NCBI GenBank assembly: GCA_041645495.1
Contig: JBAZPZ010000001.1
Location: 9,730 to 73,729, forward strand
Origin: Fidelibacterota bacterium
Lineage (GTDB): Bacteria > Fidelibacterota > UBA2242
Length of the DNA: 64,000 nucleotides
Direction of reading: 5' to 3'
Shown piece by piece: positions 28,995 through 58,875 of this stretch (position 1 is the first letter of the stretch; every line of letters begins with the position of its first letter). Position numbers and translations under genes: made by a program. The notes under the pieces are model-generated. The model worked only from the letters and a program-made list of their open reading frames with translations. It ran no database searches and was not told the DNA's origin.

Positions 28995-30185
28995 TTATTC
29001 CAATATTTCGGTTACGACGCCGGCACCGACCGTCCGTCCGCCTTCTCGAATCGCAAACCGCAACTCTTTTTCCATCGCGATCTCCGTGATCAATTCTACC
29101 GTCACGTTCACATTGTCACCCGGCATCACCATCTCGATGCCTTCCGGCAAGGTCACGACGCCCGTCACGTCGGTCGTCCGAAAGTAAAACTGCGGACGAT
29201 ATCCCTTGAAAAACGGCGTGTGGCGGCCGCCTTCTTCCTTCGTCAATACATAAACTTTACCCAAGAATTTCTTGTGGGGCGTGATGCTCTTCGGCGCCGC
29301 GACTACCATGCCTCTCTGCAGCCAATCTTTTTCGATTCCGCGCAGAAGCAAACCAACATTGTCCCCCGCTTGGCCGCGATCCAACAACTTGCGGAACATT
29401 TCAACGCCCGTCACGACCGTCTTCTTGTAGCCGCCCAGACCGATAATCTCAACTTCTTCACCAACCTTGATGACGCCCCGGTCGATTCTGCCCGTGCCTA
29501 CCGTTCCGCGTCCCGTGATCGAAAAGACGTCTTCGATCGGCATCAGAAACGGCTTCTCGATGTCGCGCTTCGGTTCCGGTATGAAACTGTCAACCGCATC
29601 GATCAATTCCATGATGCACTTCGTCTTCTCCGGATCATCCGGATTGTTCAACGCTTCCAATGCGCTTCCCCGAATGATCGGCGTTGTGTCGCCCGGAAAA
29701 TTGTACTTGTTCAGCAAGTCCCTTAATTCCATCTCCACCAAATCTATCAATTCAGGATCATCTACCAGATCTATCTTGTTCAAAAATACTACCATGCTCG
29801 GTACATTCACCTGGCGTGCCAATAATACGTGCTCTCGCGTCTGGGGCATCGGGCCGTCAAATGCCGACACAACCAATATCGCGCCGTCCATCTGTGCCGC
29901 ACCCGTAATCATGTTCTTGATGTAATCCGCGTGTCCCGGACAATCCACGTGCGCATAATGCCGCTTCGGCGACTCGTATTCCACGTGCGCCGTATTGATC
30001 GTGATCCCGCGCGCTTTCTCTTCCGGCGCGTTGTCAATACTGTCAAATGTCCGTACATCCGCAAATCCTTGCTTATGCAAAACAAATGTCATCGCCGCCG
30101 TCAACGTCGTCTTCCCGTGATCCACGTGGCCGATCGTCCCTACGTTTACATGCGGTTTCGTCCGCTTAAATTGTTGCTTTGCCAT
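28995..30185 (-). CDS. tuf: Elongation factor Tu, str-operon copy (tufA position)
   Basis: The 396-aa ORF has the GTPase G1-G4 motifs and is identical in sequence to the copy at 44543..45733. Confidence 0.97.
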
Positions 30186-44542: not shown

Positions 44543-45733
44543 CTATTCCAATATTTCGGTTACGACGCCGGCACCGACCGTCCGTCCGCCTTCTCGAATC
44601 GCAAACCGCAACTCTTTTTCCATCGCGATCTCCGTGATCAATTCTACCGTCACGTTCACATTGTCACCCGGCATCACCATCTCGATGCCTTCCGGCAAGG
44701 TCACGACGCCCGTCACGTCGGTCGTCCGAAAGTAAAACTGCGGACGATATCCCTTGAAAAACGGCGTGTGGCGGCCGCCTTCTTCCTTCGTCAATACATA
44801 AACTTTACCCAAGAATTTCTTGTGGGGCGTGATGCTCTTCGGCGCCGCGACTACCATGCCTCTCTGCAGCCAATCTTTTTCGATTCCGCGCAGAAGCAAA
44901 CCAACATTGTCCCCCGCTTGGCCGCGATCCAACAACTTGCGGAACATTTCAACGCCCGTCACGACCGTCTTCTTGTAGCCGCCCAGACCGATAATCTCAA
45001 CTTCTTCACCAACCTTGATGACGCCCCGGTCGATTCTGCCCGTGCCTACCGTTCCGCGTCCCGTGATCGAAAAGACGTCTTCGATCGGCATCAGAAACGG
45101 CTTCTCGATGTCGCGCTTCGGTTCCGGTATGAAACTGTCAACCGCATCGATCAATTCCATGATGCACTTCGTCTTCTCCGGATCATCCGGATTGTTCAAC
45201 GCTTCCAATGCGCTTCCCCGAATGATCGGCGTTGTGTCGCCCGGAAAATTGTACTTGTTCAGCAAGTCCCTTAATTCCATCTCCACCAAATCTATCAATT
45301 CAGGATCATCTACCAGATCTATCTTGTTCAAAAATACTACCATGCTCGGTACATTCACCTGGCGTGCCAATAATACGTGCTCTCGCGTCTGGGGCATCGG
45401 GCCGTCAAATGCCGACACAACCAATATCGCGCCGTCCATCTGTGCCGCACCCGTAATCATGTTCTTGATGTAATCCGCGTGTCCCGGACAATCCACGTGC
45501 GCATAATGCCGCTTCGGCGACTCGTATTCCACGTGCGCCGTATTGATCGTGATCCCGCGCGCTTTCTCTTCCGGCGCGTTGTCAATACTGTCAAATGTCC
45601 GTACATCCGCAAATCCTTGCTTATGCAAAACAAATGTCATCGCCGCCGTCAACGTCGTCTTCCCGTGATCCACGTGGCCGATCGTCCCTACGTTTACATG
45701 CGGTTTCGTCCGCTTAAATTGTTGCTTTGCCAT
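44543..45733 (-). CDS. tuf: Elongation factor Tu, second copy (tufB position, downstream of the tRNA array)
   Basis: The 396-aa ORF is 100% identical to the 28995..30185 copy. The antisense frames are identical too, so the nucleotide sequences are identical. Confidence 0.97.
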
Positions 45734-45799: not shown

Positions 45800-45872
<73 letters not shown>

Positions 45873-45906
45873 ATTCAGTCTCAAATTCTCTCGTTTTCAA
45901 TGACCT

Positions 45907-46370: not shown

Positions 46371-46443
46371 CGAGCCACCAGTAGGATTTGAACCCACGAC
46401 CCGCTGATTACAAATCAGCTGCTCTACCAACTGAGCTATGGTG
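46371..46443 (-). tRNA. thrU: tRNA-Thr (anticodon TGT)
   Basis: The acceptor is GCCACCA/TGGTGGC, the anticodon loop is TTTGTAA, and the length is 73 nt. Confidence 0.85.
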
Positions 46444-46740
46444 GCATTCATTTGTCAAACATTTCACCCGTCAGTTCCATCGGTCGCATCTCAACTGTCC
46501 GCGCTTTCCGGGCTACGGTAGCTATCAGTCTGCATTTAAAAAAGCCACGAAATTTACAAATAATTTTTCCCATAACAACAATATTTTTTCACTTCAAGAT
46601 CATTTTTTTGAGGACTTAACCGTCTCCAAACAATTTTTCAGTTCATTTTACTGATTACTGTCTATCGCTGAATCTTGATAATCCGCACGCCTTTGCTTTG
46701 ATGCCGCTGTCTATGCGTTTGAGAATATTTTCGATGGTTA

Positions 46741-47223
46741 TTAAAACGATTCCTTCCAAATCAAACGTGCCAGGAAATTGGCTATGTGTCCTTTAGTTTC
46801 GATTCCACGGTAATCATCGCGAAATCCGACTTGAATATTGACTGCATTACTCTGGTCTGGAGTGATGGAACCGATATACGTTGGGCTGAGCGAGTGCCAA
46901 AAGTTCAGATAGAATAATCGTTCGGATTGTCGCCCGCAAATCATTTTATCTGTCCTCAAACCGAGTTGGCGGAACAGTTCGCTGAACAGAATTCCGGTAC
47001 AGAAAACCTTGCTTTGTTTGCAGGTTTTGTACAAATCCTTGTAAGAACGGGAAAGTTTTGTTTTGACTTCATCCAGACGAAAGTCGGATTGATCGAAAAC
47101 AAATGCGAGCGCTTTTTCGTATCCCATCACTCCCAGCGGTTCAAGTTCAAACAATGCCCGAGTTCGATCAGTCTCGGTTTTCAGACTTTCAATCATCGTC
47201 CGAAAAAGAAGCCCGATTTCCAT
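46741..47223 (-). CDS. Hypothetical 160-aa protein; a standalone paralogue of the C-terminal domain of the REC-fusion protein at 50111..51652
   Basis: The motifs 'MGYEKALAFVF', 'LFYLNFWHSLSP', 'NIQ' and 'FLARLIWKESF' align with 'MPYEKMLATLF', 'RYFYQNLWHSIFP', 'NIQ' and 'FLARLIWNESFT' of the 513-aa protein. Confidence 0.6.
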   Translation of the reverse strand: MEIGLLFRTMIESLKTETDRTRALFELEPLGVMGYEKALAFVFDQSDFRLDEVKTKLSRSYKDLYKTCKQSKVFCTGILFSELFRQLGLRTDKMICGRQSERLFYLNFWHSLSPTYIGSITPDQSNAVNIQVGFRDDYRGIETKGHIANFLARLIWKESF

Positions 47224-47241
47224 GCTTAAACCCGATTAACC

Positions 47242-49542
47242 TTACCCGAGTCTTACATCTTCCATCTGGATTTGATAATACTCAAGAAACCGTCTCGCTT
47301 TATCCGCAAGAAACGCCCATTCTGATTCGAACTCTTCGAAGCGTTCTTCGAGAATCTTTAGCGCGATTGCTGTTGCGACGATATCTTTTGCATTTACCAA
47401 ACGCTCATGGATTTCATGGATGGCGGTCAGAACTGTTGCCGTGTCAATTTTTGAAATAACTAGCAGATCATTATTCAACTCCCAGTGCCCGTCGGCTTTC
47501 TGAGACTGAATAAGTCTCATCATTTCCTCGTGGTTTTCATTAACAATTGAAGGAGTAGGAGATGCCATTCGTTTTCTTGAAAATTTTGGTATATCGGGTG
47601 TATGTGAGCACAGATTACTTATCGCGTCGAAAGCGACATCGTGGTCTTCTATTACTAATGGACGATAAACAGATTCCATTTTTTTTCTAATGAATGTGGG
47701 CATTTTTGTTTCCTCGACTGCTCCATAGTTTTTTGTCAGTTCTATGGGAACTCGGCGGAGTTCAGGTTGAGTCGAGGCAACTGCGGCTTTACGCCTCTCG
47801 ATGCCAATAAAACTAGTTAGCGAATTGACTAAATTGTACTGACGTCCAAGTTCTATAATTTGTTGGTTGATCATCTTATCCGTTCTATCAGATTGGCTTG
47901 AGCCTCGATGCGCAGAAGCAGGATTTTCCTCCAAATCCCGGACTAGTCGGCGCGCCATCAAAGTCGGAACCGCTGAGTGTTCTTGGACAGTATCCGGTGA
48001 GATGGTGAACTGCCAGTCAAAAGTACATTCTCCGGATTTTGCCTGCAGATGAACATCAGCCTCAATAAGTTCGTTCAATCTGGCAAACATGGTTAGGCGG
48101 TCACCTGAGAAAAGATTGTCGATCTGAGTTGGTGTCTGGCGTATAGGTTCCATCGGGGACCAATCAAGTTTGATAGATTCAAAATGAGGCGAACGGGTTC
48201 GTTGAAAATGGCGCAGGATTTTCGGTTCAATGCGTTCACCCGGAAAAATAAACTCAGCGAAATCACCGGTGGATCGTGCCAACCCTTTAAGGAAATATTG
48301 ATTCACACCGCGACCGATACCGACCGGAAACAGATGACATGAATTCCGATATTTATTGACAAGACTGATGACTTCCGGCTCATTTCCGATCTCACCATCG
48401 GTAATCAGCAAGATCGCTTTGGATGCGTCGCTTTCCTTCTTCAATATATGCTCCAAGGGGGAGAATACTTCTGTGCCGCCCAGGTCCGCCTTAATACTCT
48501 GTGTATGCGAAATTGCCATATCGAGATTTTTCTGAGTATAATCAACCGCTGAATGAAACAATGACCGATAGGAACTCCCGAACTCGATCACTTGGAACCG
48601 GTCACCTTCCCGCAAAGAATGCAGACAGATTTGAAGCGCGTTTTGTGCTTGAGCGATACTTTCGCCAATCATCGACCCGGAACAATCGAGCAGAAAAATG
48701 ACTGTCCGGTTTGCTTTGAGCAGTACGTCGATCTGAGGGGTAAAATTCATCATCGCGACGAAGCCGGAATCGACGTCTTTCGCTAAAACGACAGAAGGCT
48801 CCTCTGGATCCTTTTTTCTGAGAACCAACACAAAATCCTGATTCAACTGAGTCGTTTCAGTTCCAAGAGAAATGACGGCTTCGTTATGAATCGTTTCAAT
48901 ACATATTGGATGTGAGGGTGACTGAAAGGACTGGAATTTATCTGCCTGCCGGACATGAATCTTCAGTTTCAAACCATAAGGCAATTCGCCAGCCACTGTT
49001 GGCGGGGATATATGGTCGATGAGCGCCGGGTCGCTTTCCGAAAGGGTTTTAGTCGGGAGATAACGCGGTGATATAGTTGTTGGCAAGAAAAAGCGAATGC
49101 CATCTCCTTCGGAATCTAATTCCATGACGTATTTGATTTTAACGAGCACAGATTGTTTCGGTAACAAATTGCCGATGCTGGCGGTGAAAATGTTCGGCCT
49201 GTCCTGGTCCAGTAAAAATGCACCCCAGCCTTTGGAAATTGATTCGTCGTATTTTTCAAATGCCGCTTCTTTCTCATCGACTTTTGCGACGATAGTCTTA
49301 TCGTCGGTTTCCACATCGAAACCGCAGACGGCGGCAGATTCGGGAAGTGGAAACGAATACACTGCTTCAATCGCTTTTTCTTCGATGTTCTGATAGCGCT
49401 GCTGTACCTCGACTTCTGCGGAAAAGTCGTCGATATGCGCTTCGACACTGACACCGCGCAGGGGAACTGGTGTCGCGTTATCTGCCTGAAACACGCCGAA
49501 ATACTTTTCATCGTTGGAAAGATGAGAACTCTTATTCAACAC
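47242..49542 (-). CDS. Cytoplasmic VIT (vault/inter-alpha-trypsin) plus von Willebrand factor A domain protein, with a ~300-aa C-terminal region of unknown function
   Basis: The 766-aa ORF has no signal peptide. It has an N-terminal VIT pattern, and a vWA domain with the MIDAS motif 'LLDCSGSM' and 'LITDGE'. Confidence 0.7.
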   Translation of the reverse strand: MLNKSSHLSNDEKYFGVFQADNATPVPLRGVSVEAHIDDFSAEVEVQQRYQNIEEKAIEAVYSFPLPESAAVCGFDVETDDKTIVAKVDEKEAAFEKYDESISKGWGAFLLDQDRPNIFTASIGNLLPKQSVLVKIKYVMELDSEGDGIRFFLPTTISPRYLPTKTLSESDPALIDHISPPTVAGELPYGLKLKIHVRQADKFQSFQSPSHPICIETIHNEAVISLGTETTQLNQDFVLVLRKKDPEEPSVVLAKDVDSGFVAMMNFTPQIDVLLKANRTVIFLLDCSGSMIGESIAQAQNALQICLHSLREGDRFQVIEFGSSYRSLFHSAVDYTQKNLDMAISHTQSIKADLGGTEVFSPLEHILKKESDASKAILLITDGEIGNEPEVISLVNKYRNSCHLFPVGIGRGVNQYFLKGLARSTGDFAEFIFPGERIEPKILRHFQRTRSPHFESIKLDWSPMEPIRQTPTQIDNLFSGDRLTMFARLNELIEADVHLQAKSGECTFDWQFTISPDTVQEHSAVPTLMARRLVRDLEENPASAHRGSSQSDRTDKMINQQIIELGRQYNLVNSLTSFIGIERRKAAVASTQPELRRVPIELTKNYGAVEETKMPTFIRKKMESVYRPLVIEDHDVAFDAISNLCSHTPDIPKFSRKRMASPTPSIVNENHEEMMRLIQSQKADGHWELNNDLLVISKIDTATVLTAIHEIHERLVNAKDIVATAIALKILEERFEEFESEWAFLADKARRFLEYYQIQMEDVRLG

Positions 49543-49993
49543 GGTTTTTCTCCTTTATTGGGTTTATAAATATTATTCCTAATTGATTCTTGAGATAGGT
49601 TGAGATTTCAATCAACACCGACGGCGCTGGGACTTTGACAGGGTGCGAAAATTCCAGTGTGAGTCCTTCGGTGATGCGGACACGCGTGACGATTTCCCGC
49701 GTCGGAGTTTCGATAATTGGTTCCGGCTGTTCCGAATTCAAATGCACGGCCTGTCGGAGCAAAATTCCCTGCTTCTGAAGATCGCGCAAGCGGGCGATCT
49801 GCGTCAAATGCTCGTCTGTGTAATAACTACCCCGTCCAAGTCCAACCGGGGGTGACATCAAGGCGTTCTGCACGTAAAAACGCACGGTGCGGCGACTGAC
49901 TCCCGCCAGCTCCGCCAATTCTCCGATCTTGTACTGTTTTTCTTCTTTCATGGCTTGAATATAACACTTGACTGTCGCATTGTCAAGTGTCAT
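49532..49993 (-). CDS. MerR-family transcriptional regulator
   Basis: The 153-aa ORF has the N-terminal HTH 'YKIGELAELAGVSRRTVRFY'. It overlaps the start of the VIT-vWA gene by 11 nt. Confidence 0.7.
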   Translation of the reverse strand: MTLDNATVKCYIQAMKEEKQYKIGELAELAGVSRRTVRFYVQNALMSPPVGLGRGSYYTDEHLTQIARLRDLQKQGILLRQAVHLNSEQPEPIIETPTREIVTRVRITEGLTLEFSHPVKVPAPSVLIEISTYLKNQLGIIFINPIKEKNRVE

Positions 49994-50110
49994 ATTAAAA
50001 ATATTTATTTGTGGATACTGGCTTAGGAGAATTCTTAGTGAGGATATTTAATTGTACTGGCGGTTTGTCCAGATCGCTGGTATTGATGAGTTTGAGAATA
50101 CCGTTGTCGG

Positions 50111-51652
50111 TTACGTAAACGATTCGTTCCAAATCAAACGTGCCAGAAAATAGGGAAACGAATTGTCCTGTATATTTACCCGTTCGAATTTAACAAGCAT
50201 CAGAATCGAATCTTTTCCTTCCATCGGATCTTTCACACATAGCTTAGCAGGGAAAATGCTGTGCCAAAGATTTTGATAGAAATATCTCTTTGCGTTTTGG
50301 GCGACAATATTTTTTAAATCCGGATCGGATTCTCTTCTCAAAGAGTTACCAATACCCTCAAGCAATTGATTGAAAAAGTTACCGTCCGGATAAATTTTAT
50401 TATCTTCTAAAAAACGTTTTAAATCACAATATGATTGCAGAATGGCTTTTCTGATTTGGTTATCATCAAGAACTTCAACAGGTTCAAAGAGCGTAGCCAA
50501 CATTTTTTCATAAGGCATTCTTTGGTTGAATTCAAGATTGAACCAGGCGCGCATCGCAATCATAAAAAAGAACGCTGCGTCCTTCGGACACAAATCGTCC
50601 GCGATCTGGCCATGAGACGACCAGTTTCGCAATAATTTCATCTGCCGCTCATAGTTGTTCTTGAAACGGTATTCAATGTCAAAGTTTGATAAATGCTCAA
50701 TAAAATGACCGGCGCTCATTTCCCATTCGGCGGATAGTTCTTTGATGAACTGATAATAGAGTGACTCAGCGTTTTCCGGCGGATTCAGCGGGAAAAAATT
50801 CTCCAGCTTTGACAGATAATCGCGGATATATTCCTTTTCAATTTTTGAATCTGTTGTTCTGTTGAAAAGAATCCACTCAGCGATTTCTTTTTCCAGCCGG
50901 TCTTTTAAATAACGGCAGGCATTGATGATTCCCCTTCTCAGTGCAATGTACGGAAAGTGCGCTCCGCGTTTAGTCAGGCGATTGTCGAGCCAGGCATGGA
51001 AATTCGCGACGTCGCTCTTGTGAATCGAAGGTGCCAATTCGGATAAAGCATCACAAAATTTTTCCTCAAAACGGTCATAAAGGTCTTTATTGGTTTCTCC
51101 GGCTTTCATCTTCCGAATGACTTCGGTTAGAAACTCATTTATCCGCTGAATATTGCCCATCGTCTGATATTCCTGCAATATTTCATCAAACGCCTCGTTG
51201 TCCGGGTCAGAAAGCAACTCTCTGATTTTTGCGATAATACCTATAAAATGCTCGGGATTTTTTGTTTCCAGCAGACGGTCTTTATAGGTTTTGACCCGGT
51301 AACCATTGGAAGCATGTCCTGTCAGGAAAACAATCCGGTCGTTATGAAATCCTTGCCGTATTAGCTGCTGATAGAGATAAAATCCGGACTCCTCGAGAAA
51401 CTCTGTATTTTTTCGCCCAAATTCATGGGCAATTTTTCTCACCAATTCCGTTTCCGGAAAATCTTTCAGATTAAGGTCGAATACGACAAGATCATATTCC
51501 GAAGTCGCTCTATGAATAGCGGCGTAACAGTCATCAAAATTGCGGGGAATATCCAGCCGGTTTACTTCGTCGGTGAAAAAACCGCTTTCCTGAAAGAGGA
51601 TACGGTCTCTTTGATCACCCTGCGGGGCGTCTTCGATCCAGAGAATGTTCAT
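50111..51652 (-). CDS. Response-regulator receiver (REC) domain protein fused to a ~400-aa domain of unknown function
   Basis: The N-terminus 'MNILWIEDA...DLVVFDLNLKD' is a CheY-like acidic pocket and phospho-acceptor Asp pattern. Its start overlaps the upstream kinase gene in an ATGA arrangement. Its C-terminus is paralogous to the 160-aa protein. Confidence 0.6.
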   Translation of the reverse strand: MNILWIEDAPQGDQRDRILFQESGFFTDEVNRLDIPRNFDDCYAAIHRATSEYDLVVFDLNLKDFPETELVRKIAHEFGRKNTEFLEESGFYLYQQLIRQGFHNDRIVFLTGHASNGYRVKTYKDRLLETKNPEHFIGIIAKIRELLSDPDNEAFDEILQEYQTMGNIQRINEFLTEVIRKMKAGETNKDLYDRFEEKFCDALSELAPSIHKSDVANFHAWLDNRLTKRGAHFPYIALRRGIINACRYLKDRLEKEIAEWILFNRTTDSKIEKEYIRDYLSKLENFFPLNPPENAESLYYQFIKELSAEWEMSAGHFIEHLSNFDIEYRFKNNYERQMKLLRNWSSHGQIADDLCPKDAAFFFMIAMRAWFNLEFNQRMPYEKMLATLFEPVEVLDDNQIRKAILQSYCDLKRFLEDNKIYPDGNFFNQLLEGIGNSLRRESDPDLKNIVAQNAKRYFYQNLWHSIFPAKLCVKDPMEGKDSILMLVKFERVNIQDNSFPYFLARLIWNESFT

Positions 51653-54153
51653 TGCTCTTTCTCCTTGTTGAGTTGTTTTGCCAGAAGCTCAAAATCCAAT
51701 TCCGTTTTTGGTTTATATGGCACGAAAATATCTTTCAGAAAACGAAACGTCACCTGGAATTTTCCGTTTTCTTCACGCCAGGTAAAGACTTTGTCTTTTT
51801 CCCGAATGTCATTCAGCATTTCAAGGTCGTTTTGAATTCCCTCCAACCCTTTTCCAGTACTAATCGATACGTTTTGTGTGTAGGGATTTTCCCACTCGCA
51901 TACCAGGAACGTCCGGTTTTCGATTTCCTCTTCGTGAAATCTAACATCAATCCAGATATCTTGTTCAATATCACGGTATTTCAGCGCATTGAACAGCAAT
52001 TCCTGAAAATAGCCCTGAAGCAAGGCTTCCGAGTAGCCGTCACGCCGCAGACGAATCGCATTCCAGAGCGGACTCAGCGTACAATCAATCCTGCCAATGT
52101 TGGCACTCGCCCATTCGATGGCACTGCGGTTGGGATTGAAGAAGACGTTCTCTTCAAAATCCACTCTTAGCTGGTCTAAAGTTGTTCCCCGCCGGGCGCA
52201 GATTTGCGTGCGAATTGGGTCTAATTTCCGGTAATCCGCATTCAGGAAGCGGGCGACGATGCGTTGAACAGAACTATTCAGGATTTCCTTTATGCTGATT
52301 GCCTTTTCCGTCATGTCTTCTGGCAGACGATCACCGCGGATCAACTGCTGAAATTCCGCTGGATTGCCGGTATTACGTGCCTGCAGAAGCAAACCCTGAT
52401 TTCGAATAATCGTCTCGGCGAGGTAAGCGTCGGTCAATATCCGAGCATCGCGACGGAATTCGATGTGACTCTTGAGGCGATTGGCAACCTCGTAAATCGC
52501 ATTCGGATAAAGCGTATTCGCTAACGTATGCGAATACTGTTGGATCATGCGCTCTTTTTCGCGACGATGATGCTCTGCTTGCCGTGCTAATTCTTCTTTT
52601 TTTTCATCCTCATCAGACCTTCTCTTTTCCTCCGTAATCTGAAAAATTCGTTCATTCAGTTTCACTAAAATACCGATATATAATTTAGACTTTAGAATAA
52701 CATCTGAAGTGTTCGCACTTTTAGGTTTTTGATATTCGTATATAGTATTGTCCACCCCATCCGGTAGAACTTCATTTCCAGATCGATCAAGTTCTCCCGC
52801 TGGTTCAAGCTTAGACGGAATTATTGAGTCGCCGAAGAAATTTTCCAGAATGAGTGATTTAATATTAAGCGTATAGAGTTCTCGTCCCTTGTTACCAAAG
52901 TGCTGAAGATACTCATCCAGGATAAAATCCAAATTTTGGCTGAATTTATATTGTGGGAATTTCAACTCTAATAGAAAATCCAGTTCTCCAAAATCTTCGG
53001 TTGGTTTTAACTCACCACCAGGGTTAACTAAATATTTAATAATGCTGTCTTCATCTCCGAGTCCTTGAACTTCCAAAGATGAAAAACCGAATATTTTGTT
53101 GCATATCGAATAGAACTGTTCAAGCGAAGCGAACAAACAAGAGTCACCAATGGCTCCAATTATATCAGGTAATATTTGTGGCAATGGTGAGATAAAATTT
53201 TCCGAAAATAAAGCAACCTCAATAGATAAAAAATCTTTAGGCTTATTAGGTATATTGCTGATAAAAGCCTTCAAATTATTTTCATAGAGATCTTTTTCTC
53301 TGTTTCGCAAATAAATGTATGAAAGGTAAGCAGGAACAGCCCACTTGACATACATCATATAAACTTGGGGCATACTTTCTGCTACCTTTAAATCTTTTAG
53401 AAAGGATTGCAATTGCAGAAAATCACTTAAGGCTAAGTTGAAATTTTCTGCTTTCAAATAGCACTTGGCTCGATTATAGAGAACTTCTGGTTTAAATTTA
53501 TCCTTTAAAATTATTGAAAAATCTTTACCGGCTTTTTCATACTCATCTAAAATAAAAAATAATTTTGCTCTTTTTTCATAGGAAATTGAATCAGGTTCAA
53601 TTTCAATAGCTTTTGTGTAGGCTTCCACCGCCTTGCTATATTCTCCTCTAATTCTATTTTGATCTCCAAGTTTTATCCAACCGGATTTCAATTTTGGATC
53701 AATTTTTACAGCATTAGAAAAATCATTTAATATCTCATTATCTGGCATTTCCATCGGATCCAGCAAAGCATTTCTGACACTTCCTCGAAAGTAATAGTAT
53801 TTGGCAACATTCGGATTCAATTCTATTGCCTTATTAAAACTATTTATCATACAGCCATATTCATCCTTATCCCTCCAAAGCCAAAACAAATCCTTTGGTC
53901 TATCACACCAAAGGATCAATCCTTTTAAAAAGTAATATTCTGCATAATTGGGATTTAAACTGATAGCCTGATCTATATCTCCATGCGCCTCATCAAACAT
54001 TCCTTTATCTTTGTAAGCAATCGCCCTCATGTAATAGTTGTCAGGATTTTTACTGTCTTTTTCAATGAGTTTGCTCAATTCCTCAATTGAAAGATTTTTC
54101 ATGCCATCACTTTTCATTTTTTTATCTCCGCCATTGGATTGCAATTTTCCCAC
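51649..54153 (-). CDS. Cytoplasmic TPR-repeat protein fused to an atypical histidine-kinase-like (GHKL) ATPase domain
   Basis: The 834-aa ORF has ~400 aa of N-terminal TPR repeats and a coiled coil. It has a candidate H-box 'QQYSHTLANTLY', an N-box 'ELLFNALKY' and a G-box 'STGKGLEG'. No TM segments are present. The TPR-encoding half is AT-rich. Confidence 0.55.
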   Translation of the reverse strand: MGKLQSNGGDKKMKSDGMKNLSIEELSKLIEKDSKNPDNYYMRAIAYKDKGMFDEAHGDIDQAISLNPNYAEYYFLKGLILWCDRPKDLFWLWRDKDEYGCMINSFNKAIELNPNVAKYYYFRGSVRNALLDPMEMPDNEILNDFSNAVKIDPKLKSGWIKLGDQNRIRGEYSKAVEAYTKAIEIEPDSISYEKRAKLFFILDEYEKAGKDFSIILKDKFKPEVLYNRAKCYLKAENFNLALSDFLQLQSFLKDLKVAESMPQVYMMYVKWAVPAYLSYIYLRNREKDLYENNLKAFISNIPNKPKDFLSIEVALFSENFISPLPQILPDIIGAIGDSCLFASLEQFYSICNKIFGFSSLEVQGLGDEDSIIKYLVNPGGELKPTEDFGELDFLLELKFPQYKFSQNLDFILDEYLQHFGNKGRELYTLNIKSLILENFFGDSIIPSKLEPAGELDRSGNEVLPDGVDNTIYEYQKPKSANTSDVILKSKLYIGILVKLNERIFQITEEKRRSDEDEKKEELARQAEHHRREKERMIQQYSHTLANTLYPNAIYEVANRLKSHIEFRRDARILTDAYLAETIIRNQGLLLQARNTGNPAEFQQLIRGDRLPEDMTEKAISIKEILNSSVQRIVARFLNADYRKLDPIRTQICARRGTTLDQLRVDFEENVFFNPNRSAIEWASANIGRIDCTLSPLWNAIRLRRDGYSEALLQGYFQELLFNALKYRDIEQDIWIDVRFHEEEIENRTFLVCEWENPYTQNVSISTGKGLEGIQNDLEMLNDIREKDKVFTWREENGKFQVTFRFLKDIFVPYKPKTELDFELLAKQLNKEKEQ

Positions 54154-54320
54154 CTAACCAGCACAACACCGACTTCGAAAGATGTGATGCCGGCACTTAA
54201 TGTAATCCTTACCCCAAATAAATAGTTTATAATCAAAGCAAAATAGAGAAAACCGAAAATTCTGAGTTCTCCCGACCAGGTCGTTTCTGTCTGTTCTGTT
54301 TCAATTTTCAGGATTTTCAT
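54114..54320 (-). CDS. Possible small membrane protein (68 aa) upstream of the TPR-kinase gene; could be spurious
   Basis: It has one hydrophobic segment. It overlaps the annotated kinase start by 40 nt, but does not overlap if the kinase starts at the internal Met codons at 54117 or 54102. Confidence 0.2.
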   Translation of the reverse strand: MKILKIETEQTETTWSGELRIFGFLYFALIINYLFGVRITLSAGITSFEVGVVLVRWENCNPMAEIKK

Positions 54321-54540
54321 GTTTTCTTCTTTTTGCTACTTTTGCTTCATGTTTTCAAATGTCGATCTCACTTATGCAATTAATAAACCAAAACCAAATT
54401 TCATGTCCCTGACGTACAATTTTCCCGATTCGCCCGATAGAAAAAATGAAATGTAATGGTTATATCCAAGAAGTCGGTAGTTCTGAACCGGTAAAAATCT
54501 TTACTTTCATCTGTCAAAATTTTTTCAACCCAAATTGTCT

Positions 54541-55701
54541 TTATCTTTCCTCCACTATCTTCCCAATTTCCTCCACCGGTAGTGCTATAACCTGCTCACT
54601 AACCGGATAGGTTTCTTTACCGGGATAGACGACGAAACCACGTTTGCATTCAAGGTCAGCGAAGCCGGTATGGAAACCACGCGAGAGTTGCGGGGTGGAA
54701 GTGAATTTAACTTCAATAGCGATCCGTTCGCCGGATGATTTAACGATGACCAAATCTATTTCAACTCCGGTGTTGGTACGGTAAAAATATTTTTCCCAAT
54801 GAGCAGGTAGAAGATTGATAATTTGCTCGATAACGAATCCTTCCCATGAATGACAAAGAATTGGATGTCCATAAAGTTCATCAGACGTGGACAAATTGAG
54901 AAGCGCATGAAGCAAACCGGTATCGCGAAAATAAATCTTCGGAGACTTAATTAGTCGCTTTTTCAAATTGAGATGATATGGTTGAATCTGCCGAACAACA
55001 AATGCGCTTTCCAGAATATTCAAATAATGAACTGCGGTCGGTTGTGAAATTCCGAGACTGGAAGCGATTTGGCTACCATTCCACAGTTGTCCATGCGTGT
55101 GGGCAATCATTTGCCAGAATTTACGAAGCTGAAGAGCAGGAATTCGAATACCTAACTGAGGAATATCTCTTTCTAAAAAAGTTCGGATATAAGCGCTGCG
55201 CCAAATCAGACTATTAGAATCTGAATCCGCCAGAAAGCTATCAGGCAACCCTCCGCGAAACCATAATCTTTGGATAGAATCGGTTTGATTACCGATTTCT
55301 TCCGTCTGAAACGACGGTAATTCATGATAGATAATCCGGCCGGCTAAACTTTCGGAAGATTGTTTTAGCAGGGCGGGCGAAGCCGAACCAAGAATGAGGA
55401 AACGTCCCGGAACCCGATTTTGGTCAACGAGCGTGCGGAGAATTGCGAAGAGTTCAGGAAATTTCTGGACCTCATCAATAATCACGAGCGAATTTTGATA
55501 TTGGTTCAAATAGAGTTCCGGATCCGTAAGTTTGGCGAAATCCGACGGTAATTCTAAGTCAAGGTAGCAAGCGCCAGTGTAATTTTTGAAAATTTTGCGT
55601 GCCAAAGTTGTCTTTCCAACCTGCCGGGCGCCAAGGATTCCCACGACCGGGAACTGTTTGAGAGAATCCAACACGATGTTTTGTAGTTTACGCTGTATCA
55701 T
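54541..55701 (-). CDS. AAA+ ATPase with a DUF4143 C-terminal domain (AAA_14/DUF4143 family)
   Basis: The 386-aa ORF has the Walker A motif 'GARQVGKTTL'. Its architecture is typical of the DUF4143 ATPases common in variable regions. Confidence 0.7.
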   Translation of the reverse strand: MIQRKLQNIVLDSLKQFPVVGILGARQVGKTTLARKIFKNYTGACYLDLELPSDFAKLTDPELYLNQYQNSLVIIDEVQKFPELFAILRTLVDQNRVPGRFLILGSASPALLKQSSESLAGRIIYHELPSFQTEEIGNQTDSIQRLWFRGGLPDSFLADSDSNSLIWRSAYIRTFLERDIPQLGIRIPALQLRKFWQMIAHTHGQLWNGSQIASSLGISQPTAVHYLNILESAFVVRQIQPYHLNLKKRLIKSPKIYFRDTGLLHALLNLSTSDELYGHPILCHSWEGFVIEQIINLLPAHWEKYFYRTNTGVEIDLVIVKSSGERIAIEVKFTSTPQLSRGFHTGFADLECKRGFVVYPGKETYPVSEQVIALPVEEIGKIVEER

Positions 55702-55801
55702 GGTTGCAAATTAAAAGATAGCCTTTCAATTTGCAAGGTTAATTTTTATTGTGGTCATACCGGTAATACCGTATATTACCACCAATGAAAATGGAGCCAA
55801 T

Positions 55802-56017
55802 ATGAAACCTGTAACATTCAAAATTGACGATGAATTGATTAACGAAATCGATGCGCTCGCGCAAGAACTGCATGAAAACCGGAGTTCATTGATTAAAAAA
55901 GCGTTGAACTTTTACCTTGACAATTATGACGGTATTGTTGCCAAGACTCGGCAGGATGACCCGGAAAGAGTCATGATTCCGCATGAAGACGTGTTAAAAG
56001 AATATGGCCTCTTGTAA
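55802..56017 (+). CDS. Ribbon-helix-helix (CopG/RelB/ParD-like) antitoxin
   Basis: The start is 'MKPVTFKIDDELINEIDALA...RSSLIKKALNFYL'. A GGAG RBS lies upstream. It overlaps the toxin gene by 14 nt. Confidence 0.7.
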   Translation: MKPVTFKIDDELINEIDALAQELHENRSSLIKKALNFYLDNYDGIVAKTRQDDPERVMIPHEDVLKEYGLL

Positions 56018-56264
56018 AATCCAGTGGGATACTCGCGCGCTTAAAGAATTGCGCAAAATTCCCAAAGAATCAGCCACTCGTATTCTCATCGCCGTCAAAT
56101 CTTTAGCGGAAAATCCTTTACTAGGACAACCGCTCAAAGGTGCATTTCAAGGATTTCGAAAATTACGCGTTGGTGAATTCCGCGTGATCTATTCGTTTCT
56201 TAAGGACATTGCAATAATTCAAATATTGCGGGTAGCCCACCGACGTGAGGTCTATCGTTCCTGA
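56004..56264 (+). CDS. RelE/ParE-family type II toxin
   Basis: The 86-aa ORF has the RelE/ParE signature 'LRVGEFRVIYSF...IIQILRVAHRREVY'. Confidence 0.8.
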   Translation: MASCKIQWDTRALKELRKIPKESATRILIAVKSLAENPLLGQPLKGAFQGFRKLRVGEFRVIYSFLKDIAIIQILRVAHRREVYRS

Positions 56265-56299: not shown

Positions 56300-57760
56300 T
56301 TAATTTCCTGTCATTCCCAGTTTTCTTAATCTTGCCCGGAAGGTTGCTGACGGAATGTTCAGTAATTGCGCCGCGGCGCCTGCATTGCCATTGGTCTGTT
56401 TGAGCGCCGCGCGGTAATAGTCCGGAATTAATCCATTATCGAAATCGATTCCCTCGGCAGGAATGACAATTCCCGTAGGTGAATCCGTCAGTTCGACGAT
56501 GTGCAAATGTTCGGCGGTTATTTCTTCGCCGGGATAGACGAACGCGGCGGAGATGGAACTTTTCAACTGCCGGACATTTCCAGGCCAATGATAGCACTGA
56601 ATCTTGGCAATTGCCGACTGTGTCAGGCTTTTGCGCTTGTCCTGCAGGTGATTGAGCAAATCCACGAGGTGTTGGGTGATCAATATTCTGTCTTCGCCGC
56701 GTTCGCGCAAAGGCGGAAGATAAATTTCCGTCTGAACCAACCGAAAGAACAGGTCTTTGCGGAATTGACGGTCTTTGACCAATTGACGAAGGTCGCGATT
56801 GGTAGCAGATATGATACGAACGTCCACCTTTTCTTCTTTTCCACCGACGACCTGAATCGTTCCTTGGTCCAAAAAGCGGAGCAGTTTGACCTGCATATCC
56901 GGTGGCAGGTCGCCGATTTCATCGAGGAAAATGGAACCACCGTCGGCGAGTTTGAATTTGCCTTCTTTATCCGAAATTGCACCGGTAAAACTGCCTTTTT
57001 TGTGTCCGAAAAACTCGCTCTCAAACAACTGCGGACTGATCGCTCCACAATTGATTTGGATGAAAGGCTGTTGGTTACGCAGGCTGGTAAAATGAATCGC
57101 GCTGGCGACAAGCTCTTTGCCGACGCCGGTCTCACCGCTGATAAAAATCGGCAGATCGCTTTCGGCAAACAGGCGAATTTTCTCTTTAACATTTCGGATA
57201 GCTGCAGATTCGCCGATGATCGCATCCAAACTGGTTGAAACCTGCTGGCGAAGCAGTTTGTTTTCGCGGGAAAGTTGGGTTAACGCGGCTTTCGCTTCGC
57301 TGACGTTTTGGATTTTCGGAAAGTCATCTAAGTTAAAATTGATTTCTGAGAGGCCGGTCTCGCGGTGGATTTGAATCAATTTTGCATTGATGACGCCGCC
57401 CTGTCGCAGAAAAATCCAGCAGGCGTGCATGGTTGGCGTCCCGGACGTGACGGAAATGGTAAATTTTGCATTCGAGTTCTCTTTGATGATCGTCTTGACT
57501 GCCTGATACATTGCTGGATAAACAGTGTTATAGTCAGTTGGATTGGCGGAAAGCGCTGGTTGATAACGAACCTGCAAAGTGGGAAAATTTAGACGACAAT
57601 ATTCCAGAATGGCAGAAGCTGGTTTTAAATAGGATTCGTCATTGTACAGCAGATAGAGGCGATCGAAAACGCGCTGATGCAGAGCGGCGATGATCGCGCC
57701 GGGCTTTTCGGGCAACTGGCAGTCATTGTTACCAACGAAGGATAGAAGGACACGATTCAT
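56300..57760 (-). CDS. RtcR-like sigma-54-dependent transcriptional activator (N-terminal CARF-like domain, AAA+ sigma-54 interaction domain, Fis-type HTH)
   Basis: The 486-aa ORF has the GAFTGA-type motif 'GSFTGA' and the Walker A 'GETGVGKE'. The N-terminal 'KFTISVTSGTPTMHACWIFL' is similar to E. coli RtcR 'HITTGTHVAQICWFLL'. The C-terminal HTH is 'AAAQLLNIPSATFRARLRKLG'. Confidence 0.7.
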   Translation of the reverse strand: MNRVLLSFVGNNDCQLPEKPGAIIAALHQRVFDRLYLLYNDESYLKPASAILEYCRLNFPTLQVRYQPALSANPTDYNTVYPAMYQAVKTIIKENSNAKFTISVTSGTPTMHACWIFLRQGGVINAKLIQIHRETGLSEINFNLDDFPKIQNVSEAKAALTQLSRENKLLRQQVSTSLDAIIGESAAIRNVKEKIRLFAESDLPIFISGETGVGKELVASAIHFTSLRNQQPFIQINCGAISPQLFESEFFGHKKGSFTGAISDKEGKFKLADGGSIFLDEIGDLPPDMQVKLLRFLDQGTIQVVGGKEEKVDVRIISATNRDLRQLVKDRQFRKDLFFRLVQTEIYLPPLRERGEDRILITQHLVDLLNHLQDKRKSLTQSAIAKIQCYHWPGNVRQLKSSISAAFVYPGEEITAEHLHIVELTDSPTGIVIPAEGIDFDNGLIPDYYRAALKQTNGNAGAAAQLLNIPSATFRARLRKLGMTGN

Positions 57761-57921: not shown

Positions 57922-58875
57922 ATGGCAATTTTAGTCACCGGCGCCGCCGGATTCATCGGTTTTCATCTTGCAAAATACCTGCTCGACGACGGACAAGAAG
58001 TCGTTGGCTACGACAACGTCAACGATTACTACGATCCCGCTCTCAAGCACGCGCGGCTCGAAATCCTGAAAAAATCCGACCGGTTTCACTTCTCTCACTC
58101 CGACCTCTGCGATTTACCAGCATTAGAATCGGTTTTTCAGCGTCACTCGATTCAAAAGGTTGTCCATTTGGCGGCGCAAGCGGGCGTCCGTTACTCGCTC
58201 ATCAATCCGTTTGCCTATCAAAAATCCAATCTGGAAGGTTTCCTGAACATTATCGAATGCGCCAAACGTGCTTCCGTTAAAAATTTCATCTACGCCTCGA
58301 GTTCCAGCGTTTACGGTAATAACACGAAACTGCCATTCGCCGTCGAAGATAATGTCGATCATCCGATTTCACTTTACGCCGCCACGAAAAAAGCCGACGA
58401 ACTCATCGCACATACTTACGCGCATCTGTACAAATTACCATGTACAGGATTCCGCTTTTTCACGGTTTACGGTCCGTACGGCAGACCAGACATGGCGCTG
58501 TTCATTTTTACGAAAAATATTCTCGAAGGAAAACCGATCGACGTCTATAACTTCGGTAAGATGAAACGCGATTTTACTTATATCGACGACATCGTTTCCG
58601 GGTTGATATCCGCTCTGAACAAGCCCTTTTCCTATGAAGTTTTCAATCTCGGCAATCACAAGAGCGAAGACCTGATGGACTTTATTCGACTGATCGAAGA
58701 TTATCTTGGGAAAAGAGCGATTATTAATTTTCAACCAATCCAGCCGGGCGACGTGCCGGAAACCTTTGCAGATATTTCCGCCACGACCGAAAAACTTGGA
58801 TTTTTCCCGACAACTTCGATCGATGTCGGCGTTCGGAAGTTTTTAGATTGGTATATGGATTTTTATCGAATATAA
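57922..58875 (+). CDS. NAD-dependent epimerase/dehydratase (UDP-glucuronate 4-epimerase-like)
   Basis: The 317-aa ORF has the Rossmann motif 'GAAGFIGFHL' and a YxxxK catalytic dyad. Confidence 0.75.
   Translation: MAILVTGAAGFIGFHLAKYLLDDGQEVVGYDNVNDYYDPALKHARLEILKKSDRFHFSHSDLCDLPALESVFQRHSIQKVVHLAAQAGVRYSLINPFAYQKSNLEGFLNIIECAKRASVKNFIYASSSSVYGNNTKLPFAVEDNVDHPISLYAATKKADELIAHTYAHLYKLPCTGFRFFTVYGPYGRPDMALFIFTKNILEGKPIDVYNFGKMKRDFTYIDDIVSGLISALNKPFSYEVFNLGNHKSEDLMDFIRLIEDYLGKRAIINFQPIQPGDVPETFADISATTEKLGFFPTTSIDVGVRKFLDWYMDFYRI

Follow-up and report, generated by a model that had tools for sequence, protein, structure and literature searches.

A candidate Detocs-like sensor-kinase/receiver-effector gene pair in a composite island beside tRNA genes of a Fidelibacterota bacterium

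The region studied here belongs to a stretch of 64,000 nucleotides (nt) from Fidelibacterota bacterium (GTDB lineage Bacteria; Fidelibacterota; UBA2242; GenBank assembly GCA_041645495.1, contig JBAZPZ010000001.1, positions 9,730 to 73,729 of the forward strand). In the following, this whole stretch is called the window, and all coordinates refer to it. By a 100% match to a named protein, the genome is that of a Candidatus Neomarinimicrobiota (Marinimicrobia) bacterium, assembled from a metagenome. In an original prediction, five open reading frames (ORFs) next to a tRNA gene had been grouped into one multi-component signalling or conflict module. The five ORFs are indeed present and co-oriented on the minus strand. 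Gene i (listed as 51649-54153, 834 amino acids (aa)) has its probable true start at the ATG at 54117, which gives a protein of 822 aa (51649-54117), and is followed by gene ii (50111-51652, 513 aa), the MerR gene (gene iii, listed as 49532-49993, 153 aa), the VIT-vWA gene (gene iv, 47242-49542, 766 aa) and gene v, a 160-aa ORF (46741-47223) that matches no Pfam, NCBIfam or PADLOC model. The tRNA gene beside the block is tRNA-Thr(TGT) (46372-46445, minus strand; called by ARAGORN), 295 nt from the 160-aa ORF; it is the first of a Thr-Tyr-Gly-Thr(GGT)-tuf-Trp array that is followed by secE and nusG. The ATGA overlap of genes i and ii can be read directly in the sequence (gagcaATGAacattc, with AAGGAG upstream), and the 11-nt overlap of the MerR and vWA genes was borne out, with a GTG start at 49542 behind an AAGGAG. 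The block is also partly AT-rich: the GC fraction is 0.31-0.37 in the TPR-coding part of gene i (~52750-54250) and 0.37-0.39 at the 3' end of gene ii, with 0.45-0.50 elsewhere. The calls of TPR repeats in gene i, of MerR and of VIT and VWA domains are direct Pfam matches. Apart from the TPR region of gene i, genes i, ii and v gave no NCBIfam or PADLOC match.

To examine the grouping of the five genes, the loci of gene ii relatives were collected, 63 metagenome loci from a contig pattern scan and 10 others, about 60 of them distinct. They were annotated with the window proteins and with neighbours from related loci, and the flanking ORFs were then clustered. The MerR gene, the vWA gene and the 160-aa ORF were found in 0 of the 63 and 10 loci, so that the five families do not co-occur in this collection. 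The original prediction had named a lack of co-occurrence as grounds for rejecting the system, and for the five-gene set this is what was found. The five genes are not one system; they are a conserved pair (genes i and ii), an unrelated MerR/vWA pair and a leftover fragment. The combination had been called undescribed, and this stands for genes i and ii, which as a unit match no Pfam, NCBIfam or PADLOC family; it does not stand for the five-gene set, which is no system at all.

As a sensor-kinase/receiver-effector pair, genes i and ii are strictly conserved and coupled in translation. Wherever a locus extends upstream of the gene ii relative, the adjacent gene on that side lies on the same strand and encodes a partner with a kinase-like C-terminus. 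Four-nucleotide overlaps make up 31 of the 68 partner/gene ii junctions, and most of the others measure 24 nt or less. This adjacency and the frequent overlaps support the assignment of the predicted kinase and receiver as a cognate pair.

The gene i protein (822-aa numbering) comprises a TPR region (~aa 20-260; Pfam 1e-20), a linker and a predicted histidine-kinase module (~aa 480-822). Its C-terminal ~340 aa are common to partners whose N-termini are unrelated, namely TPR repeats in the window and in loci L003 and L012 and other sequences in L001 and L009. When the complete gene i protein was used as the query, generic TPR proteins dominated the matches, and only four true full-length relatives were obtained; therefore, partner homology was taken from the loci. 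In all 46 partners, from both subfamilies, H530 of the H-box (YSHTLAN), E706 and N710 of the N-box (ELLFNALKY) and G757 of the G-box are invariant; N744 is kept in 45 of the 46, and T531 and N534 are nearly invariant. Pfam detected no GHKL domain in gene i of the window. The kinase-region profile was aligned by hhalign with the HATPase_c_5 domain of the relative P0032 (probability 96.3%, E 1.7e-9), which supports the earlier GHKL call indirectly, and Pfam recognised HATPase_c in three and HATPase_c_5 in two of 15 kinase-family members. A sequence search of the PDB with the kinase profile gave nothing significant. Judged by its conserved motifs, the C-terminus of gene i is a histidine-kinase module with a GHKL relationship. 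The relatives P0031 and P0032 have a TPR region and linker (~500 aa) identical or nearly identical to those of P0030, whereas their kinase modules differ: P0030 carries the divergent type of the window, and the Pfam-recognised type is found in P0031/P0032 (HATPase_c_5 being recorded for P0032). Because both follow the same TPR/linker region, the divergent and the HATPase_c_5 kinase modules occupy equivalent positions. At the sequence level, this comparison indicates a recent swapping of modules.

Gene ii encodes a receiver (aa 1-225) and a 288-aa helical effector domain (aa 226-513), and an AlphaFold model of the whole protein reached a predicted local distance difference test (pLDDT) value of 91 and a predicted template modelling (pTM) score of 0.89. 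Pfam did not detect a REC domain in the window protein. The REC call is supported indirectly by a phospho-acceptor set that is retained throughout the 51 full-length relatives: E7, D8, D59 and K212 are found in 51/51, and position 111 is threonine in 47 and serine in four. The best structural matches of this part are ComE and LytR, both regulators of the LytTR family. In long forms of the gene ii family, a helical insert of ~90 aa lies between strands beta4 and beta5 of the receiver, and short forms are without it. The N-terminus of gene ii thus has a receiver fold with the acidic pair, the phospho-acceptor aspartate, the Thr/Ser and the lysine.

The large second domain of gene ii had been described as uncharacterised, and it remains so, with no Pfam match and no Foldseek match in the PDB. 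When modelled alone (pLDDT 93.2), it consists largely of helices, with a small beta-hairpin towards the C-terminus. Its invariant residues include L238-R239-R240-G241, W310, K339, R342, H347 and R368. Three of these belong to a motif K339-x2-R342-N343-x3-H347, in which R342 and H347 are present in 51/51 relatives and position 343 is asparagine in 49 and histidine in two. HEPN domains are characterised by an Rx4-6H motif with a polar residue after the arginine (Anantharaman et al., 2013, PMC3710099), and the R-N-x3-H of the effector fits this rule. The effector is a likely, though putative, HEPN-type RNase. Sequence searches of the PDB with gene ii and with the effector-domain profile gave nothing significant.

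The family is small and patchily distributed. A word-indexed search of 5.8 billion proteins found only 28 relatives of gene ii, and the effector-domain profile matched 422 cluster representatives among 1.84 billion; most of the 150 representatives listed out of these 422 are 420-555 aa long and carry the effector domain after a receiver-sized N-terminus. No gene ii relatives were found in 2.9 million viral contigs. One full-length relative with 47% identity (P0007) is annotated to a metagenome-assembled genome of Promethearchaeota, an Asgard archaeon, which would imply either transfer across domains or a binning error. Tandem kinase/receiver pairs occur in several loci (L006 11457-13943, L019 5700-8337, L038 5880-8541, L041 1920-10434). 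In L006, L019 and L038 the tandem consists of a TPR protein related to the kinase partners and a following protein of ~355-380 aa; in L019 this second protein shows the same receiver-like motif, 'LWVEDD', at its start and another domain at its C-terminus. Two complete pairs of the gene i/gene ii type are found in L041. Among the short forms, a third gene encoding a NUDIX protein of ~560 aa recurs in 15 loci (L037-L066), usually just downstream of the pair and in L046 upstream of it (e.g. 223-1992). These NUDIX-bearing loci often have a protein of ~190 aa upstream, to which no family was assigned. This suggests that the short-form subfamily has a three- or four-gene variant.

Upstream of the pair, a gene for an RtcR-like regulator (56300-57760, minus strand) is co-oriented with it. 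The protein has a CARF domain, a sigma-54 AAA+ domain with a GSFTGA loop and a Fis-type HTH domain (Pfam RtcR 2.7e-8, Sigma54_activat 5e-65 and HTH_8; PADLOC RtcR_PspF2 CARF_AAA_HTH 5.6e-128, full length). A co-oriented upstream RtcR-like gene was also found in L001, L003, L006, L009, L011, L017, L019, L020, L022 and L057, and it is present in all eight long-form loci with enough upstream sequence. We propose that the RtcR-like protein activates the transcription of the module that follows it. Between the RtcR-like gene and the operon, sigma-54 sites matching 11 of 12 consensus positions are found in L009 and L022 (TGGCACAGCACTTGCA) and in L057 (TGGCATGTTCTTTGCT), with a background of 0.022 per kb. 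In the window, the better-placed of the sigma-54-type -24/-12 candidates is the weak site TGGTTTATTAATTGCA (54375-54390, minus strand; 8/12 consensus positions), which is located ~55 nt before a small ORF (54114-54320, minus strand, 68 aa, with one hydrophobic helix; from the ORF list and the sequence). The TGA stop of this small ORF overlaps the ATG of gene i (ATGA). Its protein is kept in L012 with 56% identity over 59 aa (tblastn E 1.4e-17; DNA identity there ~68%), was seen in these two loci only and has no Pfam match. Possibly, the small ORF is the first gene of the operon and encodes a small membrane protein.

Between the RtcR-like gene and the module lie an AAA_14/DUF4143 ATPase gene (54541-55701, minus strand; Pfam DUF4143 3.1e-48 and AAA_14 1.3e-26, PADLOC PDC-S01 3.6e-96) and an RHH/ParE toxin-antitoxin pair on the opposite strand (both within 54541-56264). 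Fragments of a DUF4143 gene are found at the same relative position in L019. The ATPase gene is probably a separate defence-candidate gene. Because the PDC-S01 ATPase and the toxin-antitoxin pair are located between the RtcR-like gene and the module, the region from 46.4 to 57.9 kb looks like a small defence island. In other loci, the surroundings of the pair are of a comparable type. In L008 the pair is part of a type III-A CRISPR locus, with the csm genes on one side of it and cas6 on the other, and in L029 csm2 and csm3 directly follow it. The short-form loci have recurrent NUDIX, S1-TPR, caspase, PIN and HNH neighbour genes, and toxin-antitoxin genes also occur in neighbourhoods of the pair.

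The MerR gene (Pfam MerR_1 4.7e-15) and the vWA gene (Pfam VIT 1.3e-33, VWA_3 8.7e-17) are an independent, widespread two-gene unit and no part of the i/ii pair. The VIT-vWA protein is cytoplasmic and has an intact metal ion-dependent adhesion site (DCSGS) and a conserved C-terminal region; 1443 full-length homologues at E<=1e-30 are distributed over many phyla. A MerR gene was found directly upstream of the vWA homologue in five of six sampled loci (L075, L076, L078, L103 and L104), and the MerR homologues of L075, L076 and L078 are 44-50% identical to that of the window. All other neighbours differ among the six loci. For more distant VIT-vWA genes, a MerR-like gene is immediately upstream on 14 of 24 other contigs (loci among L083-L101). 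The variable neighbours of MerR/VIT-vWA pairs are often defence-like (caspase, MmeI, NERD, Schlafen-type helicase, toxin-antitoxin). A vWA profile search of viral contigs found only distant VIT-vWA proteins with 22-29% identity, a contig scan with the single vWA protein returned one irrelevant haloarchaeal vWA only, and in the literature no description of a MerR/VIT-vWA pair was found. The original prediction had seen in the composition of the block the class of nucleoside triphosphate (NTP)-dependent conflict systems built around vWA proteins (Kaur et al., 2020, PMC7159879). In that class, genes for an NTPase partner and for effectors accompany the vWA gene from genome to genome, and such a coupling was not encountered here: the only constant neighbour of the vWA proteins is MerR, and they never occur with gene i/ii relatives. 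This reading fails because the vWA protein belongs to an independent MerR/VIT-vWA pair in many phyla.

Gene ii and the MerR gene are separated by 117 nt and a promoter. A near-consensus sigma-70 promoter (11/12 in the promoter scan, with a TG extension) lies at 49958-49990 on the minus strand, with TTGACA at 49986-49981, a spacer of 17 nt and TATATT at 49963-49958. A perfect 9-bp inverted repeat (ACACTTGAC/GTCAAGTGT) spans the -35 element and the spacer. In the classical arrangement of the MerR family, the operator is located between the -35 and -10 elements, and the repeat conforms to it. Promoter and repeat fall inside the annotated 5' end of the MerR ORF; therefore, we assign a shorter MerR of 139 aa that likely starts at the ATG at 49951, and its transcript is possibly leaderless. 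The arrangement implies a predicted autoregulation of the MerR/vWA unit.

The 160-aa ORF had been taken for a standalone paralogue of the C-terminal domain of gene ii. The paralogy was upheld (residues 368-512 of gene ii, 32% identity over 148 aa, E 6e-17); a free-standing family was not. With the C-terminus of P0010, a full-length family member of 506 aa, the ORF shares 75% identity over 139 aa. In L024, from a related organism, an intact gene of the P0010 type directly follows the kinase gene and stands beside the same order of tRNA-Thr/Tyr/Gly genes. The segment 1652-2924 of L024 matches 47160-45854 of the window with 85.5% identity through these tRNA genes, and the homology with the 160-aa ORF begins at 47160, its codon 22, so that the first 21 codons lie outside. 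Along the window kinase gene, the DNA identity to L024 is ~83% up to ~51950 and then drops to ~55%; from 47160 onwards it is again ~85%. Therefore, the window holds a divergent cassette relative to L024. Judging by this alignment, the cassette is made up of ~100 codons from the 3' end of the kinase gene, another allele of the receiver-effector gene and the MerR/vWA unit, and the 160-aa ORF is the displaced 3' remnant of an older gene ii allele of the P0010 type, which is probably not functional. A repeat of 69 nt, which covers the 3' ends of genes ii and v and 28 nt downstream, is a trace of their relationship. No remains of the N-terminal part of the P0010-type gene were found in or around the vWA gene. 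As the ORF is a displaced 3' fragment of another allele, it is not the solo effector that had been assumed. A solo effector family was also considered on the basis of fragment-sized matches, which are ~20 of the 150 listed (~13%); it was rejected, since the alignments of most of these fragments begin at their first residue and in mid-profile, a pattern expected of ORFs truncated by contig ends, and since the homology of the 160-aa ORF to the intact allele sets in only at codon 22.

The island is delimited on one side by tRNA-Thr, which is a fixed boundary of the variable region, and on the other by an opposite-strand run of housekeeping sugar genes that starts at 57922, past the start of the RtcR-like gene. 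Between the tRNA-Thr array and these sugar genes, the composite island of ~11 kb contains three separate things. The tRNA side of the window has further repeats. The EF-Tu gene tuf is present in two copies, 28996-29295 and 44544-44843, which are 100% identical over at least 300 nt and lie 15.5 kb apart; matches to the sigma-54 pattern that recur at 29060/44608, 29807/45355 and 30077/45625 show that this identity spans ~1 kb. The segment 45923-45963 is an 85% copy of a 41-nt segment (45847-45887) that covers an end of tRNA-Thr(GGT) with a few bases beyond it. It is placed between tRNA-Thr(GGT) and tRNA-Gly, no tRNA was called in it, and a matching segment is found in L024. The copy could be an old integration-site remnant.

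The closest known relative in organisation is Detocs (DtcA/DtcB/DtcC), a defensive two-component system whose protective effect depends on the histidine of the kinase and the aspartate of the receiver (Rousset et al., 2023, bioRxiv 10.1101/2023.01.24.525353). Like Detocs, the i/ii pair is an operon that combines a cytoplasmic TPR sensor kinase with an effector in place of a DNA-binding output, the effector domain is exchangeable, and the positions of the essential kinase histidine and receiver aspartate are invariant in the i/ii family. The detection rule for Detocs requires all three of the kinase DtcA, the receiver-only protein DtcB and the receiver-effector DtcC, and its effectors are PNP ATP nucleosidases in 80% and otherwise restriction endonuclease (REase), TOPRIM or membrane/hydrolase domains (bioRxiv 10.1101/2023.01.24.525353). 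The effector of the i/ii pair is helical and HEPN-like, unlike the PNP, REase, TOPRIM and membrane domains of Detocs. Further differences are the HTLxN H-box of the kinase, the receiver nearest to ComE/LytR, the ~90-aa helical insert and the RtcR-like gene at the head of many loci. With its different effector and without a DtcB-like receiver, the pair is not a member of Detocs.

In its setting, the locus resembles the type II/III-A CoCoNuTs, which are RtcR-headed defence superoperons with HEPN RNase cargo, ancillary genes in between and RelE-family toxins nearby (Bell et al., 2024, PMC11090510). Here too, an RtcR-like CARF/sigma-54 activator stands at the 5' end of co-oriented genes, and the PDC-S01 ATPase and a ParE toxin of the RelE/ParE type with its RHH antitoxin lie in between. 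However, the cargo is a kinase/receiver-effector pair and not a McrBC-type GTPase/nuclease tandem, the toxin-antitoxin pair of the window is on the opposite strand, and good sigma-54 promoters are found in some relatives only. The effector shares with HEPN RNases (Csm6/Csx1, RnlA/LsoA, Cas13, Abi2/AbiD) an all-helical domain, the R-N-x3-H motif and the fusion to a sensor domain, as in the CARF-HEPN protein Csm6. It differs from them in lacking a match to a HEPN Pfam profile, in its size of 288 aa with an extra C-terminal beta-hairpin subdomain and in its fusion to a phospho-receiver rather than to CARF. The receiver match to ComE/LytR and the alignment of the kinase profile to HATPase_c_5 are also reminiscent of LytS/LytR and AgrC/ComD systems. 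Unlike these, the pair has no membrane sensor and no LytTR DNA-binding output, and its kinase is cytoplasmic with TPR or other soluble sensors. A system of a receiver-HEPN protein and a kinase was not found described in the literature. The legend of a DefensePredictor figure combines TPR, HATPase and REC labels in one predicted, unvalidated system.

Taken together, we lean towards the interpretation that the block contains a Detocs-like defensive two-component module with a HEPN-like effector, joined by an independent MerR/vWA unit and a remnant, and we consider this somewhat more probable than its negation. The core two-gene module is a credible defensive two-component system that is undescribed in the literature and libraries searched. 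In the proposed mechanism, the variable N-terminus of gene i, TPR repeats in this case, would sense a trigger such as a phage component, upon which the kinase would autophosphorylate on H530 and the phosphate would move from H530 to D59 of the receiver. The receiver would then switch on the R342-N343-x3-H347 site of the effector, most likely a metal-independent RNase, and cleavage of RNA would lead to growth arrest, as in Detocs with a different effector. Transcription of the module would probably be armed by the upstream RtcR-like CARF/sigma-54 activator, for which the signal might be cyclic oligoadenylate or 2',3'-cyclic-phosphate RNA ends. The autoregulated MerR/VIT-vWA pair has landed between the module and the tRNA genes, and the 160-aa ORF was left when the divergent cassette replaced the older effector allele.

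Several observations weigh against this interpretation. Foldseek found nothing at E<=0.001 in the PDB for the predicted effector model, Pfam found no HEPN family at E<=1 in any of the 26 family members, and no Ex3[KR], the second motif of HEPN domains, was recognised in the effector. There is no DtcB-like receiver-only gene in the window block or adjacent to the pair in the contexts examined, and PADLOC v2.0.0 had no match for genes i and ii, the presence of Detocs models in this library being unchecked. With respect to the regulator, an RtcR-like gene is missing from the vicinity of most short-form relatives, and the ATPase gene and the opposite-strand toxin-antitoxin pair stand between it and the module in the window. 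The sigma-54 candidates of the window reach only 8/12 and are not significant alone, and the number of matches in a consensus scan of the window did not exceed chance. The location in type III CRISPR loci has no counterpart in the 64-kb window, where no Cas10/Csm homologues were found. Finally, we infer the defence role, the phosphotransfer, the RNase activity, the trigger and the RtcR control in the genome of the window from the features described above.

A more far-reaching version of the Detocs-like interpretation is that genes i and ii represent an undescribed defensive two-component family with two tiers, in which the sensing of a nucleotide or damaged-RNA signal by the RtcR-like activator and the transcription of the module would be followed by a relay from the kinase, with its variable N-terminus, through the receiver to a new HEPN-like RNase. 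Cyclic-phosphate products might feed back on the CARF domain, and the exchange of kinase-tail-plus-effector cassettes at the tRNA hot spot might leave displaced 3' remnants, as in polymorphic toxin loci. We regard this extended scheme as tentative and would not expect all of it to hold.

Alternatively, genes i and ii might serve ordinary two-component regulation, with an output domain that binds RNA or protein without catalysis, comparable to the HEPN-fold regulator MtlR. They would then tune an RNA-damage or stress response under the control of RtcR. It would suit this explanation that RtcR homologues classically control RNA repair (PMC7790460) and that toxicity and defence are properties we infer for the pair. 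However, non-catalytic HEPN families typically lose the Rx4-6H motif (PMC3710099), whereas the catalytic R, N/H and H are kept in all 51 relatives. In addition, the rarity and patchiness of the pair, its position at a tRNA hot spot with allelic cassette replacement, and its neighbourhood of type III CRISPR, toxin-antitoxin, caspase and NUDIX genes count against ordinary regulation. Owing to the catalytic motif, the patchiness and the hot-spot turnover, we consider an ordinary regulatory role less likely than a Detocs-like function, and as such rather unlikely.

It could also be assumed that the receiver is a nucleotide sensor, as has been proposed for the REC domain of Cam2 from type III CRISPR loci, so that the pair would be an ancillary cyclic-oligoadenylate effector and the GHKL partner an ATPase or adaptor and not a kinase. 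Cam2 sets a precedent for a REC domain without a kinase (PMC11229360), CARF-containing RtcR-like genes are adjacent, and csm genes surround the pair in L008 and directly follow it in L029. Most loci, however, have no cas or CARF genes, and the receiver keeps the full phospho-acceptor set (E/D, D, T/S, K). In contrast to Cam2, its neighbour is always a partner whose H-box histidine is invariant. With a kinase partner that is never missing and a complete phospho-acceptor set, a nucleotide-sensing receiver is less likely, and we consider it improbable.

That the five genes nevertheless form one multi-component NTP-dependent conflict system, with a vWA protein, a TPR sensor, a REC switch and a fused and solo effector, is very improbable: co-orientation, tight spacing, the i/ii and iii/iv overlaps and the recurrence of these domain types in conflict systems (PMC7159879) speak for it, but the families do not co-occur in ~60 distinct loci, the MerR/vWA unit has its own promoter and operator behind the 117-nt gap and pairs up in unrelated contexts, and the 160-aa ORF is a remnant.

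For genome scans, the locus carries the lesson that overlapping, co-oriented genes at a tRNA may be a patchwork and not one system, and it is a clear example of cassette replacement that leaves a displaced gene fragment. As a by-product, the MerR/VIT-vWA unit emerges as a deeply conserved gene pair that is often found in variable regions. The effector domain, with ~420 clusters at 50% identity and no model in Pfam, NCBIfam and PADLOC, would be a new effector family if the module is a defence system. To our knowledge, Detocs is so far the only validated two-component phosphorelay that is used directly as immunity. If our interpretation is true, genes i and ii would be a second, independent lineage of phosphorelay immunity with a different kinase type and an RNase-like effector, and phosphorelay immunity would be tied to CARF/sigma-54 transcription control and to type III CRISPR loci. 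With a conserved kinase core and swappable sensors, what such kinases sense would become directly testable.

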